The position numbers and the translations under genes were made by a program. Shown piece by piece: positions 19,355-56,179 of a stretch of DNA of 64,000 bases. Each line of letters begins with the position of its first letter. Position 1 is the first letter of the stretch. The notes below the pieces were generated by a model, which worked only from the letters and a program-made list of their open reading frames with translations, was not told the DNA's origin and did not search any database. Source of the stretch: an uncultured Prevotellaceae bacterium (GTDB taxonomy: Bacteria > Bacteroidota > Bacteroidia > Bacteroidales > Bacteroidaceae); the NCBI GenBank assembly GCA_900316985.1, contig ONFE01000040.1, positions 1,039-65,038 of the forward strand, given 5' to 3'.

Positions 19355-20398
19355 TTATTTCAGCAGTTTCTCCAATCGTTCCATGAGTTCTCGGGTGTTG
19401 AGTCCGTGCTCAAGGATGCGGCCTTCTTTGCTTACGATGATATTATCGGGGATTTGGGTGAAGCCCAGTTGATTCATCACAGGGGATTCGAACATCTTTT
19501 CATCACAGACGACGGGAGTGGTGACGGTGTCACGCTGCAACGCGCGCTTGCATTCCTGCTTACTGGCATCGGCACAGATGCCGATAAGGTTGAGCTGACT
19601 GCCGTGCTTACGTGCGATGCGGCGCAACTGGCGCTGTTGTTCGAGGCTCTCATAACTCCAACTGGCCCATGTGTAGATGACGGAGAGGGAACCGCCGAGA
19701 TTGGCATTGGTAACAGGGCGCCCATTGATGTCGAAGCCGGAAAAACGGGGAATTTTCTGGTCTTTCCCCGTGGCTTTGTTCTTGGCAAGATCAGTTTCAA
19801 GCCGCGTGAGGGCTGTGCTATTTTTCTGTTTGCTCTTGATGAGCGAGAGCAGTTGTTCGGCCTGTTTGTAGTCGGGCTTGTCGGTGAGGATGAAATATCG
19901 GCGCAGGAGGTAGAGGCTGACGGGTGAGGCGGGGTTTTCCTGAATGAAAGTGGCTGCATGTTTCTGCTCCTCAACGGGGGAGACTTTGGAAACCTGCAAA
20001 CGGAATTTGGTCAGGAGTTCATTGGCCTTCGTGCCTTTTACCTTAAGTTCTTTCAGATGGGAGGCATCGCCGTCCAAGCTGACGGACTGTCCTTCTTCGG
20101 CAAAGATGGGCTGTTCGGAGAAATTAGGGAAGACGAGCATGAGTATTCCGCTGGTGGCACAGGGTATCTCGTGGCTGAAGCGTCCGCCATTGAGCTTGAG
20201 GGTGTCGATACCGGTGATGATTCCGTCGGGACTATATAGGTAGAACTCTCCCTGATTCATCTTCAGAAAGTGGCCTTCCAACTTAAAATAGCCATCTCGG
20301 GAACCGCAGGAGGTAAGAATTAAAACAAAGAAGATCCACCCCCAACCCTCCTTATAAGGAGGCAGAAAAAACTTTAAGCGTGAAAGGATTTTACTCAT
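19355..20398 (-). CDS. DUF4369 / thioredoxin-like (TlpA-type) lipoprotein lacking the CxxC motif
   Basis: Lipobox LTSC; C-terminal thioredoxin-like WASWSYES and IPDNIIVSKEG. The signal peptide contains a palindromic element. Confidence 0.75.
   Translation of the reverse strand: MSKILSRLKFFLPPYKEGWGWIFFVLILTSCGSRDGYFKLEGHFLKMNQGEFYLYSPDGIITGIDTLKLNGGRFSHEIPCATSGILMLVFPNFSEQPIFAEEGQSVSLDGDASHLKELKVKGTKANELLTKFRLQVSKVSPVEEQKHAATFIQENPASPVSLYLLRRYFILTDKPDYKQAEQLLSLIKSKQKNSTALTRLETDLAKNKATGKDQKIPRFSGFDINGRPVTNANLGGSLSVIYTWASWSYESLEQQRQLRRIARKHGSQLNLIGICADASKQECKRALQRDTVTTPVVCDEKMFESPVMNQLGFTQIPDNIIVSKEGRILEHGLNTRELMERLEKLLK
20333..20365. repeat. GC-rich hairpin element, in-frame in a lipoprotein signal peptide
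   Basis: GATCCACCCCCAACCCTCCTTATAAGGAGGCAG, encoding LPPYKEGWGWI on the minus strand. Confidence 0.8.
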
Positions 20399-20414
20399 CA
20401 GTTATCACTTATCA

Positions 20415-20449
20415 CTCCCTCCCTCACAGGGAGGGCTGGGTTGGGTCTT
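20415..20449. repeat. GC-rich hairpin element, intergenic copy
   Basis: CTCCCTCCCTCACAGGGAGGGCTGGGTTGGGTCTT, a few bases after the stop at 20454. Confidence 0.85.
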
Positions 20450-20453
20450 CTTT

Positions 20454-22178
20454 TTATTTGTTTACGCGCATCAGCTCCATGTCCTTCTGTGCATAATCCT
20501 TCAGGGATGGGTCTTTCTGGAAGGCGCTACGCAGGAAGGATTCAGCCACGTCGAAATTACCCTGACGGGCGTTGACGATGGCGGAGAGATAATCGGTCAT
20601 ACCGTCTTTCTTCTCCACGTTGCGAAGGATGACGCTGGCGGTGGTGTAGTTCTTGTTGAGAAGTTCGGCCAAAGCACTACTGTTGTTGAAGGAATCTTTC
20701 AGATTCTCGGCAGCTTCAGCATAGTTGCCCTTAGCGATGTTGAGGTTACCGAGTGCTTCACCAATCTGCTTGGCTCCTGTGGCCTTGGCAATGAGGTATT
20801 CGGCATCTTCGATGTTACCATCCTTCAGGGCCATCAGTCCTAAGTTTGCGTACGCCTCGGGGATGGCTGTCTTGGAACCGGCGATATCCTGGAAGTACTT
20901 GGCAGCGGCCGAGTAGTTGCCTTTGTTGAATTCAATGACACCTACGTTGTTGGAAGCACGCTTGTCGTCGGGATAGATTTCAGCGGCTTTCTTGTAGATG
21001 TTTTCCTTGGCGTCGGCATCGCTTTCCAGCCCTGCAGCATAAAGGAGCTCTTCGATATTGAGCTGGGTGGGGTCGCTCTTGTACTGGTCCTTGATCTGCT
21101 GGTCGCTGCGGCCTACCACCTCGTAGTTGATAATCATACGGGAGCGGCGCAGTTCGGGCAGGATGCCGTCGGCCAGTTCACGGAAGCCTTCGCTCATATT
21201 ACGGATCTGCTGCTCACGCTCATAAGGATCTTCATACATGGAGAGCACGCGCAGGATGACATCCTTGTCCTGAATGTTGCTGGCCTGAACGAGTTTCTCG
21301 AATCCTTCCCAGTCTTCAGCGGTATAACCGCCAATGATGTTGGCGTTCATGCCTTCGCTGAAGAGTTGCTGGTTGACATAGTCTTCTGCAGAGAACTGAC
21401 GGCGGTTAGCGAGGTCATCGTTGAGAAGCAGTCCACCCTCAGGTGAGGCGTAGGCCTGAATCTCGACATCTTTCAGATTGAGCTTCTCGTGTTCACGGTT
21501 GATTTTCTTCAGCATGGCCACGAACTCCTTCACGGAATTGGTCTGGAGTTCGCTCTTGCGCAGATTAGCCTGATTGATGAGGAACTTCACCTGTGCTTCC
21601 TGCTTTTGGGCGGTAACGCGCTGGAAAGAATCGGGAGCCAGGCAGGCACCACCGTTGAGCATGGTCTTCTTATAAAGTTCTGAGGTGGCAATCACACCGT
21701 TGGCAATCTTCACGGCAGGAATCTTCACTTTCTTCTTGCCTATCTTGGCATCGAAGGCCATGAACATTTCGCTCTGGAGCATTTCGGGCACATATTTGAA
21801 CTGGCTCTTGATGGTATAGATGCCGCCAAACTTATAGCTGATGCGCTGATCGTTGCCCATCACTTTCTCACCTTGGAAACTGGTAGCAGTGCTGCGTGCC
21901 ACCTGTCCATTGCCATAGTGGAGTTCGGGAATGACGCTGACCACGGCCTTCTTATTCATATATTTAGCCGGGAATTTGCCATACACAGTGGCAGTTACGA
22001 GTCCGCCTTGTGTCTCCAGGGGACTAGGGGTTACGTCAAAATTATTGGCAGCCAATGGCCCCATACCGGAAGAGCAGGAAGAAAGAGCCAAAAAAGATGC
22101 TGCTGAAACAAAAGCGATTAGTAACCGATTCCTACAGGAATCGCTTTCAGAATACATGAATGAAAGAATTCTGCGCAT
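20454..22178 (-). CDS. OmpA-like/TPR outer-membrane lipoprotein
   Basis: Lipobox LSSC; OmpA-like segment (AYASPEGGLLLNDDLANRR); C-terminal TPRs. Start trimmed to MRRIL because the ORF-track start overlaps tRNA-Leu. Confidence 0.7.
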   Translation of the reverse strand: MRRILSFMYSESDSCRNRLLIAFVSAASFLALSSCSSGMGPLAANNFDVTPSPLETQGGLVTATVYGKFPAKYMNKKAVVSVIPELHYGNGQVARSTATSFQGEKVMGNDQRISYKFGGIYTIKSQFKYVPEMLQSEMFMAFDAKIGKKKVKIPAVKIANGVIATSELYKKTMLNGGACLAPDSFQRVTAQKQEAQVKFLINQANLRKSELQTNSVKEFVAMLKKINREHEKLNLKDVEIQAYASPEGGLLLNDDLANRRQFSAEDYVNQQLFSEGMNANIIGGYTAEDWEGFEKLVQASNIQDKDVILRVLSMYEDPYEREQQIRNMSEGFRELADGILPELRRSRMIINYEVVGRSDQQIKDQYKSDPTQLNIEELLYAAGLESDADAKENIYKKAAEIYPDDKRASNNVGVIEFNKGNYSAAAKYFQDIAGSKTAIPEAYANLGLMALKDGNIEDAEYLIAKATGAKQIGEALGNLNIAKGNYAEAAENLKDSFNNSSALAELLNKNYTTASVILRNVEKKDGMTDYLSAIVNARQGNFDVAESFLRSAFQKDPSLKDYAQKDMELMRVNK

Positions 22179-22199
22179 AATTAATAAAAGATTTAAAGG

Positions 22200-22285
22200 T
22201 GCCGCGAGCGGGACTCGAACCCGCACAGCCATCACTGGCCAAGGGATTTTAAGTCCCTCGTGTCTACCAATTCCACCATCACGGC
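22200..22285 (-). tRNA. tRNA-Leu (anticodon TAA)
   Basis: Reverse complement GCCGTGATGGTGGAATTGGTAGACACGAGGGACTTAAAATCCCTTGGCCAGTGATGGCTGTGCGGGTTCGAGTCCCGCTCGCGGCA; long variable arm; anticodon loop CT-TAA-AA. Confidence 0.95.
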
Positions 22286-22424
22286 GCGGTTTTGTGAATG
22301 CAAAGGTACGAAAAAGTTAGGATTAGGCGTGAGGAGTAAGGAGTTATCCGCTGCCGATTAAGTTTTTTTAACTCATGGTTAACGTGAGTATACTCCTGCG
22401 CTCTTAAACTCCCAAAGTTCTAAA

Positions 22425-23012
22425 TCAATAATAATGGTTGTTTACAAGGAGAACGACGGGTTGTCCGCTAGCGGTGGCAAAATAGCGTTCCAACCGACCG
22501 CCTTGGGGTGAGAGCCCGTTGTTGGTTAGGTCGTATTGCCGGTTGCATTGGATGCAGGTGGCAATACCAGAAGTGTTTACGGAAAGCAGGTTAAACATCT
22601 TACCGTTATTGTAGCAGTTAGCACAGCAGGCATCGTAGCAATAGAGGGTTCCACCGAAACCGTAGCCAACAATGATACCTGTCTCGTTGTTAAGGCCTAA
22701 AGCCAACGGGGATTGAGTCTCACGGGCTGCAAGTTTAACGGTGCTGCTGATTCCTTGATTGTTCTGAAAGTTCAGTTGGGAAGGCTTGGTAACGTAGATG
22801 CGGCAGAAAATATTGGTGGTCAGTCCTGTAAGGGCAGCGCCTATGGTCTGGTCCAAATGGCTTGAATTGTCATAGCGCAAATAAGCTGCATGATTGCTAT
22901 ATTCGTTCTCTATGTCACCGCAGGAGGTGAGATATAAAATAATGACGATGACCCACCCCCATCCCCTCCATATAGGGAGGGGAGTAGTATGCTTCTGATT
23001 AGGGTTTACCAT
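22425..23012 (-). CDS. Cys-rich lipoprotein with a Rieske-like C-terminal region
   Basis: Lipobox LTSC; CYDACCANC and CIQC..YDL motifs. Confidence 0.6.
   Translation of the reverse strand: MVNPNQKHTTPLPIWRGWGWVIVIILYLTSCGDIENEYSNHAAYLRYDNSSHLDQTIGAALTGLTTNIFCRIYVTKPSQLNFQNNQGISSTVKLAARETQSPLALGLNNETGIIVGYGFGGTLYCYDACCANCYNNGKMFNLLSVNTSGIATCIQCNRQYDLTNNGLSPQGGRLERYFATASGQPVVLLVNNHYY
22950..22985. repeat. GC-rich hairpin element, in-frame in a lipoprotein signal peptide
   Basis: GACCCACCCCCATCCCCTCCATATAGGGAGGGGAGT, encoding TPLPIWRGWGWV. Confidence 0.8.
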
Positions 23013-28141: not shown

Positions 28142-29004
28142 GTTCGTTTGGCTTTTATCATACGGTTTTTGCCGAATTGGTCTTTACGGGTTTCTACTTC
28201 GGAATAGCCCATTTCATCGAGCATTTTTATCAATTCCTGATGATAGGCGGGATTGATTTCAAAGAATAGCTGTCCGTTCTTTTGCAAGGCTTTATTTCCA
28301 TAATTAGCGATGGCACGATAGAAGAGCAACGGATCGCCATCGGGAACAAAGAGGGCTTGATGGGGTTCGTGGTCGAGTACATGCTGTTCCATTTCTGCAG
28401 CTTCTTTCTGGCAGATGTAGGGGGGATTGGAGATGATGGAGACCCACCCTAACCCTCCATGAGCAGGGAGGGAACTTAGCACATCAACTTGTTCGAATTT
28501 GACTTTGGCCTGAAGTTCTTGGGCATTCTCACGGGCAACCGTGAGTGCATCGGCAGAGATGTCCCAGGCCTCTACTTTTGCTTGGGGCATATCCAAAGCG
28601 AGGGTGATAGCTATGCAGCCGCTGCCAGTCCCTATATCCAAAATAGAGTAATCTCTTTCCTCTCTTCTCTCTCCTCTTTCCTCTTTCCTCTCTTCTCTCT
28701 CCTTTTCTTTCACCCATTGGCACAGCTCGTATGTCTCAGGTCTAGGAATAAGAACATCGGGAGTGACTCTGAATATGCGTCCGCCAAACTCTGCTTTGCC
28801 AACCACATACTGCACGGGTTCGCCATTCAGTAACCTTCGTAATTTTTTGCCCATTTCATCGGAAGGGATGCTTTCAGCAGCCCCACTGATGATATCGGCC
28901 ATGGAAAGACCGTAACCCACTTCCAACAGATAGCGTATAACAGCTTTGGCCTCACGTTCTGGATAGCGTGAGGCCAAAGATTTACAGAGTTCTTGATAGG
29001 TCAT
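28138..29004 (-). CDS. prmC: Release-factor glutamine methyltransferase (HemK)
   Basis: GEPVQYVVG, VLIPRPETYEL, LDIGTGSGCIA, NPPY. Contains a heptamer tract and a hairpin element. Confidence 0.95.
   Translation of the reverse strand: MTYQELCKSLASRYPEREAKAVIRYLLEVGYGLSMADIISGAAESIPSDEMGKKLRRLLNGEPVQYVVGKAEFGGRIFRVTPDVLIPRPETYELCQWVKEKEREERKEERGERREERDYSILDIGTGSGCIAITLALDMPQAKVEAWDISADALTVARENAQELQAKVKFEQVDVLSSLPAHGGLGWVSIISNPPYICQKEAAEMEQHVLDHEPHQALFVPDGDPLLFYRAIANYGNKALQKNGQLFFEINPAYHQELIKMLDEMGYSEVETRKDQFGKNRMIKAKRT
28441..28473. repeat. GC-rich hairpin element, in-frame in prmC
   Basis: GACCCACCCTAACCCTCCATGAGCAGGGAGGGA; encodes the LPAHGGLGWV segment just before IISNPPY. Confidence 0.8.
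28655..28703. repeat. Seven tandem heptamers (AG[G/A]A[A/G]AG on the coding strand) in prmC
   Basis: Units AGGAGAG AGAAGAG AGGAAAG AGGAAAG AGGAGAG AGAAGAG AGGAAAG, within the EKEREERKEERGERREERD tract. Confidence 0.9.
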
Positions 29005-54541: not shown

Positions 54542-56179
54542 CTAGAAATCGGGAGCTTTCTGGAACTCCATTATTTCATCGGTCAGCGGATGGGTGAAAG
54601 AGAGGTATTCGGCATGAAGGTAAAGACGGTCAGAATGGAAACCGTAGAGGTCATCGCCAACAATCGGCATTCCCAATCCGTCTTGGTGGGCACAATGCAC
54701 ACGCAACTGGTGGGTGCGGCCGGTATGGGGTGTGAGCAAAACACGGTAATACGGTCCTTCCTGGCCGATAAATTCATAATCGGTCACCGCTGGTTTTCCC
54801 TCTTCGTAATCTACTACTTGTCGCGGACGGTCTAAGTAATCTGGGGCGAGAGGGAGAGAGATAACCCCCCTCTGACTCCCCCGAGGGGGAGGAAGAGAAC
54901 CACCCCTGCCCTCCCTGTTTAGGGAGTTTTTATCCGCTTCAGAAGTATTTTCTCCCTCCCTTTGGGAGGGATTAAGGGTGGGTTGTACCATTGCCACATA
55001 GCGTTTCTTCACTTCGCGCTGCTCGAACTGTCGCTGCAGTTGTTTATAGGCAAACTCGGTTTTGGCCACCACGATGATGCCGCTGGTGGCCTGGTCGAGC
55101 CGGTGAACCATCATAGGACCCGTTGCATTCGGGAAACGTTGGCGCATGATGTCGTAAAGCGAAATCTCTCCCGTGTTGCCTGGGACCGATAGCAGTCCTT
55201 CGGGTTTGACTACTACGGCTATTTGGTCATCAACGAAAAGAGTTTGGACGTAAACACCTGCTCCCTCCCTTCGGGAGGGCTGGGGTGGGCTTCCTCCCTC
55301 CCTTCGGGAGGGTAAGGGGTGGGCCAATTGCCAACTCAGTATAGGCTTGCACTTGCCGTTGCAGGCGGGATAGAACTGGAAATGATGGCGGATTTCGCGC
55401 TTCGGACTCTCTCCCCACCAGAATTCGGCAATGGCCAGCGGCTTCAGGCCATGCTGGAAGGCATACTGGAACAATTTAGGCGCACAGCATTCGCCTGTAC
55501 CGCCTGGCGGTAACGGGAACTTGCGCAACAGCTTCGGCGAATTATGGTAATCGCGCCAAATGTCCACCACATTGCGCACCTCTCCCTTATAATTAATAAG
55601 GTTGTATTGTTCGAAGAGCCAAAGCAGCAGGTCGTTTGACATCTGCTTGCGCTGGTGTTTGAGGGAAAGAAGCCCCCCTCTGTCCCCCCGAAGGGGGGAG
55701 GATTCGGATTCTGAAGAAAGATTCGATGGAACCTTCCCCCCTTCGGGGGGATTGAGGGGGGCTTGTAACGCTTCAATCTCCTTGTTTAGGGCGGAAATTT
55801 TTGCTTCGGTCTGTTTGAAATGGCCGTCGGGCTGTTGCGCATCGAATATGGGCGGAACGAACCAATCCCAATCGTTGCGGCCCGCCAACAGGCCGGCATA
55901 GGCGGCGAGGAAACTAACCCCCCTCTGACTCCCCCGAGGGGGAGCATCTTGAACGGGCTCTTGCTCTCCCCCTCGGGGGAGTTGGAGGGGGGTTACTATT
56001 AATACCCCGAACATTTCTCCTTTCTCGGCATCGGCCAAAAGCTCCTCGTGTGCGCGTACATATTTCTTTACCTCCTCGGCAGCTAACAGGCACAGGGGAT
56101 GCGGCTCATAGTTGAACGGGTTGTTCAGCTGTGAGGGCGGCTCGATGTCGGTTTGAAGCGGATGTACTCGCAGATTCAT
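54542..56179 (-). CDS. rluA: RluA-family pseudouridine synthase with Bacteroidetes N-terminal extension
   Basis: VVVKPEGLLSVPG, catalytic HRLDQATSG, TGRTHQLRVH, IVGDDLYG, LHA. Nine palindromic inserts. Confidence 0.92.
   Translation of the reverse strand: MNLRVHPLQTDIEPPSQLNNPFNYEPHPLCLLAAEEVKKYVRAHEELLADAEKGEMFGVLIVTPLQLPRGGEQEPVQDAPPRGSQRGVSFLAAYAGLLAGRNDWDWFVPPIFDAQQPDGHFKQTEAKISALNKEIEALQAPLNPPEGGKVPSNLSSESESSPLRGDRGGLLSLKHQRKQMSNDLLLWLFEQYNLINYKGEVRNVVDIWRDYHNSPKLLRKFPLPPGGTGECCAPKLFQYAFQHGLKPLAIAEFWWGESPKREIRHHFQFYPACNGKCKPILSWQLAHPLPSRREGGSPPQPSRREGAGVYVQTLFVDDQIAVVVKPEGLLSVPGNTGEISLYDIMRQRFPNATGPMMVHRLDQATSGIIVVAKTEFAYKQLQRQFEQREVKKRYVAMVQPTLNPSQREGENTSEADKNSLNREGRGGSLPPPRGSQRGVISLPLAPDYLDRPRQVVDYEEGKPAVTDYEFIGQEGPYYRVLLTPHTGRTHQLRVHCAHQDGLGMPIVGDDLYGFHSDRLYLHAEYLSFTHPLTDEIMEFQKAPDF
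54862..55995. repeat. Nine GC-rich hairpin elements at four in-frame sites in rluA
   Basis: 54862-54891, 54898-54926, 54952-54982, 55261-55290, 55294-55324, 55672-55700, 55732-55762, 55915-55944, 55964-55995. Confidence 0.9.

Follow-up and report, generated by a model that had tools for sequence, protein, structure and literature searches.

The 64,000-nt stretch of DNA analysed here in full (the window; contig ONFE01000040.1 of assembly GCA_900316985.1, positions 1,039 to 65,038 of the forward strand) comes from a rumen Prevotella and contains a short, GC-rich repeat composed of a hairpin and a G-rich tail. Two copies of this repeat are read in frame in two unrelated lipoprotein genes, where they lie between the ATG and the hydrophobic core of the predicted signal peptide. 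The repeat is probably a selfish element of the same kind as the Rickettsia palindromic elements (RPE), tolerated within coding sequence and, in exported proteins, forming the distal part of the n-region plus the opening residues of the h-region. The two genes and their copies are as follows.

19355 to 20398, minus strand: gene 1, a DUF4369 plus thioredoxin-like (AhpC/TSA) predicted lipoprotein, with its lipobox Cys codon at 20306-20308.
22425 to 23012, minus strand: gene 2, a 195-residue predicted lipoprotein, family unassigned, with its lipobox Cys codon at 22920-22922, followed by GDIENEY.
20333 to 20365, minus strand: right-hand repeat copy in gene 1, 33 nt (CTGCCTCCTTATAAGGAGGGTTGGGGGTGGATC), with a 7-bp stem (CCTCCTT/AAGGAGG), a 2-nt loop and the tail GTTGGGGGTGGATC.
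22950 to 22985, minus strand: repeat copy in gene 2, 36 nt (ACTCCCCTCCCTATATGGAGGGGATGGGGGTGGGTC), with the stem CCCCTCC/GGAGGGG and the tail ATGGGGGTGGGTC.

The copy in gene 1 encodes codons 12-22, LPPYKEGWGWI (CTG CCT CCT TAT AAG GAG GGT TGG GGG TGG ATC), within the N-terminus MSKILSRLKFF-LPPYKEGWGWI-FFVLILTSC, which continues with GS. In gene 2, codons 10-21 are encoded by the copy (ACT CCC CTC CCT ATA TGG AGG GGA TGG GGG TGG GTC) and read TPLPIWRGWGWV, so that the N-terminus is MVNPNQKHT-TPLPIWRGWGWV-IVIILYLTSC, continuing with GD. After each copy come 8-9 hydrophobic residues, then an L-T-S-C lipobox, whose Cys is residue 31 in both proteins. A BLASTP alignment of the two proteins is confined to their N-terminal 54 residues, the mature parts being unrelated, and gene 2 has no match in Pfam or NCBIfam. 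Coordinates, frames and alignment thus agree with an earlier reading made from the sequence only, which had placed an in-frame element just upstream of the lipobox in two unrelated lipoprotein genes. The repeat motif occurs five times in the window, against 0.05 occurrences expected. One further copy, inside prmC (28440 to 28473, minus strand), reads SLPAHGGLGWV immediately ahead of SIISNPPY, and its tail is in the frame used by the two lipoproteins, as the sequence-only reading had also noted.

An account in which the copies are an untranslated leader, the true start being downstream or non-canonical, appears very improbable. Neither gene contains an in-frame ATG, GTG or TTG between the copy and the lipobox, which places the element in coding sequence, as had been supposed, and a start after the copy would leave no charged n-region and just 8-9 residues ahead of the Cys. 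Furthermore, every element-bearing orthologous locus read as DNA keeps the frame set by its ATG open across the copy, even where segments of 18 and 27 nt have been added; the indels are multiples of three. Because the frame is intact in spite of these segments, this argues for selection on the reading frame through the copy, with the caveat that some of the loci were retrieved via gene-caller products. The leader account can point to in-frame ATC and ATT codons after the copies and to other loci at which a downstream Met is available, such as that on contig C60 (MILMLLLCFVS...), where the copy is probably leader. At genes 1 and 2, the copies are likely to be translated and export would still be working.

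A rule-based check, employing a PROSITE PS51257-type rule (basic n-region, uncharged h-region, lipobox [LVI][ASTVI][GAS]C, Cys at residues 15-35), gives the following values for the signal peptides with and without the repeat.

Gene 1, natural: n-region charge +3, h-region 13, Cys at 31; passes the rule.
Gene 1 minus the 33 nt: n-region charge +3, h-region 10, Cys at 20; passes the rule.
Gene 2, natural: n-region charge +2, h-region 14, Cys at 31; fails at the -4 position only (Tyr).
Gene 2 minus the 36 nt: n-region charge +1, h-region 11, Cys at 19; fails at the -4 position only (Tyr).

Gene 2 has the lipobox LTSC, Cys 31, and the basic residues K7 and R16, and a 98%-identical cluster representative carries ILILTSC in the -4 region. 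The copy in this gene contributes Arg16 and five uncharged residues, and by the same check the signal is weaker without it. The G-rich tail and the T/C-rich flank behind it encode uncharged residues (GWGWV-FF, GVGL-LL) that form the start of the h-region, and the proposed compatibility of the tail with the beginning of a hydrophobic region therefore holds. Wherever a G-sense copy lies in a signal peptide, its tail stops 7-12 residues short of the cleavage site; the basic residue encoded by the 3′ arm is thus situated at the n/h boundary, as expected if copies survive at harmless positions alone.

The likeness between genes 1 and 2 is not limited to the repeat itself. Their 5′ regions share 80% identity in an alignment of 64 nt that passes the repeat end and runs through to the lipobox, and the lipobox 12-mer ACCTCCTGCGGT (20306-20317 and 22920-22931) is identical in the two genes and found nowhere else in the genome. 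Codon bias was considered as the cause of the shared 12-mer and rejected, as other S-C-G lipoboxes vary in their codons and element-free orthologues use different ones. Since the 12-mer is unique to these two genes and codons are varied elsewhere, the resemblance of the two 5′ regions probably reflects common descent or gene conversion.

At gene 1, the right-hand copy is one half of a tails-outward inverted doublet that surrounds the start codon. The remaining parts of this arrangement, together with the gene upstream of it, are listed here.

20415 to 20447, plus strand: left-hand partner copy, G-rich on the plus strand and so C-rich in the mRNA, beginning 6 nt past the stop codon of the TPR-repeat gene.
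20366 to 20414, minus strand: doublet spacer, 49 nt, with an A-rich leader, the gene 1 ATG (20396-20398) and codons 1-11 (MSKILSRLKFF).
20454 to 22235, minus strand: TPR-repeat gene, upstream of gene 1, its stop codon abutting the left copy.

Gene 2 has no left partner copy in the window, and the argH stop codon stands 3 nt ahead of its ATG. Relatives have kept the order gene 2, TPR gene, gene 1, comM-like gene, and in the window a tRNA gene lies beside gene 2. Next to this tRNA gene (22200-22285), positions 22292-22350 hold a short simple repeat of the GAGTAAGGAG/TTAGGATTAGG type plus a TGCAAAGGTA box. The TGCAAAG type of box is found repeatedly in the window (repeat families D2 and D5), and at 54862-55995 many repeat copies are packed within one long open reading frame (ORF), for which a home-made gene caller gives a single open frame of 546 residues.

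The layout in which the ATG resides in the doublet spacer is shared by four orthologous gene 1 loci of other genomes (L033-L036; 52-87% protein identity) and by the gene 2 orthologues L038, L044, L050, L051 and L053. In the predicted RNA fold of the gene 1 doublet, the left and right copies pair over about 30 bp into a helix whose loop contains the AUG (-56.9 kcal/mol, z = -5.3), and the doublet of L034 folds at -73 kcal/mol (z = -8.2). Conceivably, such a helix could control translation, mRNA processing (for example by RNase III cutting between co-transcribed genes) or stability, the coding role of the copies being incidental. These minimum-free-energy folds, with the copies paired around the AUG, speak for that idea, as does the retention of the gene 1 start-codon doublet in five of the five species examined. 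However, the fold is inherent in any inverted doublet, the left partner is missing at gene 2 in the window and at L037, stems are decaying in L035 and L051 gene 1, and no Rfam family is found at the sites, so that regulation through this structure seems improbable. The same geometry, an approximately 50-nt start-codon segment flanked by inverted repeats, could in principle serve as an invertible switch, with the copies acting as recombination sites and a flip of the spacer, whose reverse complement has no ATG, producing phase variation. This notion can be given almost no credence, given a family of more than 200 copies that are mostly inside or after genes and the lack of a partner copy at gene 2.

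The wider family conforms to the selfish interpretation. The unit, of about 33-45 nt, is made up of (A)ACT, CCCTCCC, a 2-9-nt loop, GGGAGGG, yTGGGGTGGG and TCTTCTTT, and a second subfamily has CTCCCCC...GGGGGG. A hairpin-plus-G-tail scan for perfect stems finds 224 copies in the 3.73-Mb genome, a number that is a lower bound, whereas the reversed sequence yields 13 and a shuffled control 4. Gene calls from the home-made program (2930 genes, 88% coding) place more than half of the copies (128-131 of about 220) within ORFs, while the 89 intergenic ones adjoin gene 3′ ends and are scarce in divergent promoter regions (7/89). Adjacent pairs are inverted with tails outward in 42 of 48 cases, the spacer measuring at most 20 nt in 21 of these and 21-150 nt in another 21. 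The inner flanks of the doublets (AG-TAATTACT), compared by eye, are also inverted repeats, and the doublet architecture is REPIN-like. Across the family, conservation of the flanks fades beyond about 12 nt upstream of the hairpin. The genome to which the window belongs, 99.8% complete, has no match to a RAYT (Y1 transposase, PF01797), with controls matched, and a search of the window against Rfam at gathering thresholds returns two tRNAs only and no family at the repeat sites. A long-spacer doublet on contig C94 (78769-78974) encloses, on the opposite strand, a 30-codon hydrophobic ORF (MKKETIKAIIQMVIAALTALLTSLGVVSCL) that is possibly a small membrane peptide.

Similar insertions can be followed into genes of known function. 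In LeuRS and LigA, a single NCBIfam match spans an in-frame doublet in each protein, and in IspD and QueG the equivalog models are still matched, in two stretches, around in-frame doublets. As judged by these protein models, the genic copies are real insertions in real genes. The cytoplasmic proteins GpsA, ArgC and PurE have an element-encoded N-terminal extension, with the family models starting directly after it, at residues 22-30. Among the long-spacer doublets, 4 of 21 have an ATG in the spacer that reads through the right copy into a gene, namely gene 1, the gene for a secreted, 1295-residue glycoside-hydrolase-like protein, and the genes for GpsA and PurE. The layout at gene starts is therefore not confined to exported proteins, and the copies are biased toward gene 5′ ends in general. 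In such cases the original start codon would have been replaced, and a new ATG, lying upstream of the hairpin by about 10-18 codons, would have come into use.

A potential origin of the family is suggested by three small DUF559 nuclease genes, each of which is flanked by a pair of copies (C52:12791-13102, C105:73591-73908 and C60:6425-6742). The closest likeness of the gene 2 copy is the gene 1 copy, and the next closest are the copies at the DUF559 locus on C52. The DUF559 genes may be the parent elements of the repeats and may mobilise them. Full-length DUF559 elements reside between sufC and sufD (C52:12700-13200) and upstream of argC (C105:73500-74000). SufC ends inside the left repeat, and SufD and ArgC start at an ATG in the right end of the element and read through the terminal repeat; at argC, this ATG comes directly after the DUF559 stop codon.

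It is unlikely, although conceivable, that the element ends are evolved gene-junction adaptors, with a left end that terminates the ORF upstream and a right end that brings an outward-facing ATG and an open frame. An insertion at a start codon would thereby re-create a working N-terminus, and in exported proteins the resulting hybrid signal peptide may be selected, for example for altered export efficiency or regulation. The two fused full-length elements (sufC, element, sufD and element, argC) are arranged in precisely this fashion, the spacer ATG reads into the gene in the long-spacer doublets just described, and the family models begin exactly past the extension. In addition, the two unrelated lipoprotein genes are headed by the same cassette in several genomes, and copies are retained at their site across deep divergence. 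Against this, the family-wide flank profile contains no ATG conserved at a fixed distance, survivorship alone could yield the same picture, and a strict search for one spacer type (type II, below) gave a single further true match, again at gene 2. A related proposal, rather doubtful, is that a DUF559-linked element lands on a start codon within an operon and rebuilds a working N-terminus at once; in exported proteins this would create hybrid signal peptides with the n-region and the first part of the h-region taken from the element, and cassettes of about 150 nt could then move or be copied between unrelated lipoprotein genes. If this were true, the element would be a real source of signal-peptide turnover in Prevotella.

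The idea of a selfish, tolerated repeat can be set beside the broader claim of the sequence-only reading, that the element is a portable module which remodels export signals and should be enriched, with a bias in frame, in signal peptides. In the first 50 codons, copies in signal peptides comprise those of the two lipoproteins described here, a lipoprotein on C70, two Sec-type proteins on C89 and C160, and a paralogous lipoprotein pair on C105 (C-sense). Of the 128 genic copies, 13 lie within 25 residues upstream of an N-terminal hydrophobic stretch, a zone that accounts for 1.9% of codons (p = 1.5e-6), with a hydrophobic criterion that is loose and met by half of all genes. This enrichment mostly reflects the general 5′-end bias. 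About 7 of the approximately 25 copies that fall within the first 50 codons can be read as belonging to true signal peptides, a share close to that expected for exported proteins from general knowledge rather than from a computation on this genome. A junction test, in which 7 of 69 G-sense copies abut a hydrophobic 8-mer against a baseline of 5.5% (p = 0.08) and 1 of 59 C-sense copies does so, is suggestive only. With cytoplasmic GpsA, ArgC and PurE carrying the same kind of extension, the predicted genome-wide enrichment does not emerge as anything specific to signal peptides.

The predicted bias in reading frame fares no better. The tail is read as GWGW in the two lipoproteins only, with GLGWV in prmC, and other signal-peptide copies have GVGL, GSWRGL or belong to the other subfamily, such that signal-peptide cases use at least two tail frames. 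No frame bias is demonstrable in this genome, where the numbers are too small, and because all three tail frames give uncharged peptides, a frame preference is neither needed nor demonstrable. The export-module proposal is upheld in its descriptive part, in that the same cassettes head both unrelated gene families elsewhere, which is portability of a sort; nothing shows selection for the remodelling of export. Because it treats cytoplasmic enzymes likewise, the repeat is probably a tolerated invader and not a dedicated export module.

The comparison of orthologue N-termini, which had been recommended as a check, shows that the copies are present in part of each family. Distant orthologues of gene 1 (45-50% identity) and gene 2 (35-44%), from other species of the genus, have short MKR/MKK signal peptides that lack the repeat, as exemplified by MKRLAFIITLALVLVSCGSRNGYF and MKRLPYYIIALLALLTSCGDSEYEF. 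Of the 28 gene 1 homologue clusters that are closest, 18 have element-derived N-termini, as do about 8 of 16 gene 2 clusters. On a tree of the mature parts, element-bearing gene 1 N-termini fall in two clades, requiring at least two state changes, a number as low as which was reached in 0 of 500 label shuffles. The N-termini themselves differ greatly even between sister lineages, and can be grouped as follows.

Type I: MRIVSLSRLIKYS-LPKQGGLGWI.
Type II: M..KHTTPLPIGRGWGWV.
N-termini with double and triple copies.
Type III: built from another repeat, GTGAAGAGT/ACTCTTCAC, and reading MKSEEF...FTLHSSLFTL...FTSCG.

Gene 2 homologues are headed by the same N-terminus types. In related genomes, inverted GTGAAGAGT / ACTCTTCAC arrays, read as MKSEEF...FTLHSSLFTLLLLFTLHSSLFIFTSCG, can head both lipoprotein genes, as at L039:1350-1650, L040:950-1250, L044:4300-4520 and L045:2500-2720; a second, unrelated repeat family thus supplies a whole lipoprotein signal peptide.

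The correspondence between the two gene families extends to individual sequences. The gene 1 and gene 2 homologues P0023 and P0133 are 88% identical over 33 residues, and P0013 and P0131 agree at each of residues 1-16 and at 24 of residues 1-25. In DNA comparisons, a gene 1 cassette matches gene 2 cassettes of other genomes with 80-83% identity across about 173-188 nt, and gene 2 of the rumen metagenome-assembled genome RUG030 (...YSRLKKYL-LPPYREGWGWV) has the cassette type of gene 1 in the window. A cassette family of about 150 nt therefore heads both gene families in several related metagenomic genomes. Concerted evolution was considered and set aside, as gene 1 and gene 2 cassettes are no more alike within a genome (70-76% identity) than between genomes (up to 83%). 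The sharing of cassettes may stem from gene conversion, cassette duplication or independent insertion. A strict pattern for the type II spacer, searched in species-representative genomes, has one true match only, again at gene 2, and so there is no evidence of that cassette dispersing to other loci.

Taken together, these features are probably explained by a simple scheme in which in-frame selfish repeats are tolerated where they do no damage. The repeat units are open in any host frame and would thus be tolerated inside ORFs. At both lipoprotein genes, the right-hand unit is situated between the start codon and the hydrophobic core, and in gene 1 and many orthologues of both genes the ATG and n-region are within the doublet spacer. 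When translated, the unit would give a stretch rich in Pro and Leu, followed by a basic residue that the AGG/AAG codons of the 3′ arm specify and by G-W-G-W-V/I from the tail, with Phe added by the T/C-rich flank past the tail. The repeat would in this way encode the distal n-region and the first h-region residues, leaving the host to provide the remaining 8-9 hydrophobic residues and the lipobox. The n/h boundary is presumably one of the few sites near a gene start at which an insert that is first charged and then uncharged is harmless, and the copies may be survivors of purifying selection rather than a purpose-built export device.

Several observations weigh against this scheme. The count of genic copies is approximate, coming as it does from a home-made ORF scorer, and the homologue N-termini are gene-caller predictions, biased to long open frames. 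In-frame ATC and ATT codons downstream of the copies would permit a rare start there. The insertion boundaries are deduced ones, no near-identical strain having been found with an empty site, and among 400 genomes of the genus searched for close relatives none is above about 50% identity. Moreover, lineages with as little as 52% protein identity still have copies in the same position. Neutral selfish DNA would not be expected to last so long, and either the copy or the doublet could consequently have a function.

Nevertheless, if the repeat is a tolerated selfish element, a dispersed selfish sequence can encode part of a bacterial export signal, with the cassette as the apparent source of the start codon, the n-region and the initial h-region residues. 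The presence of one cassette family on unrelated lipoprotein genes would represent a concrete route by which signal peptides and N-termini could turn over fast in Prevotella, a genus dominant in the rumen and gut. It also calls for caution in these genomes, since the repeats affect start-codon calls, signal-peptide predictions and orthologue alignments. The literature searched contains no account of such repeats in Prevotella, of DUF559-linked in-frame repeats, or of repeats within signal peptides.

Among known systems, the REP and REPIN-RAYT elements (Bertels and Rainey, 2011; PMC3116915) offer one parallel. Like these, the Prevotella repeat occurs as hundreds of short palindromes per genome, forms spaced inverted doublets, and has intergenic copies beside gene 3′ ends. 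In copy number and inverted doublets the two therefore correspond. The repeat-flanked RAYT that characterizes REP and REPIN elements is not found in the Prevotella genome, where the candidate parents are DUF559 nucleases, and the extragenic location is not shared, over half of the copies being in ORFs. A second parallel is with MITEs that remodel gene 5′ ends, small, non-autonomous inverted-repeat elements that sit at gene boundaries and alter expression signals. Those of Neisseria known as Correia elements chiefly contribute promoters together with sites for IHF and RNase III, all in untranslated regions. By contrast, the Prevotella repeat is read as protein and appears to supply a start codon and n-region. 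The nearest relatives in behaviour are the RPE, reportedly described by Ogata and colleagues in 2000, which are likewise dispersed palindromic repeats lying in frame in protein genes, including housekeeping genes, and adding a peptide segment while the protein stays intact. As far as can be told from sequence, the Prevotella copies are palindromic repeats in frame in intact protein genes in just this sense. The two are unrelated in sequence, and the Prevotella repeat belongs to none of the RPE sequence families, which are about 100-150 bp long and found in Rickettsiales rather than Bacteroidota. Its units measure 33-45 nt, or about 70-150 nt as doublets, and are GC-rich, with a G-tract tail and tails-outward pairing; unlike the RPE, it is linked to DUF559 genes and is here located in signal peptides and at start codons.

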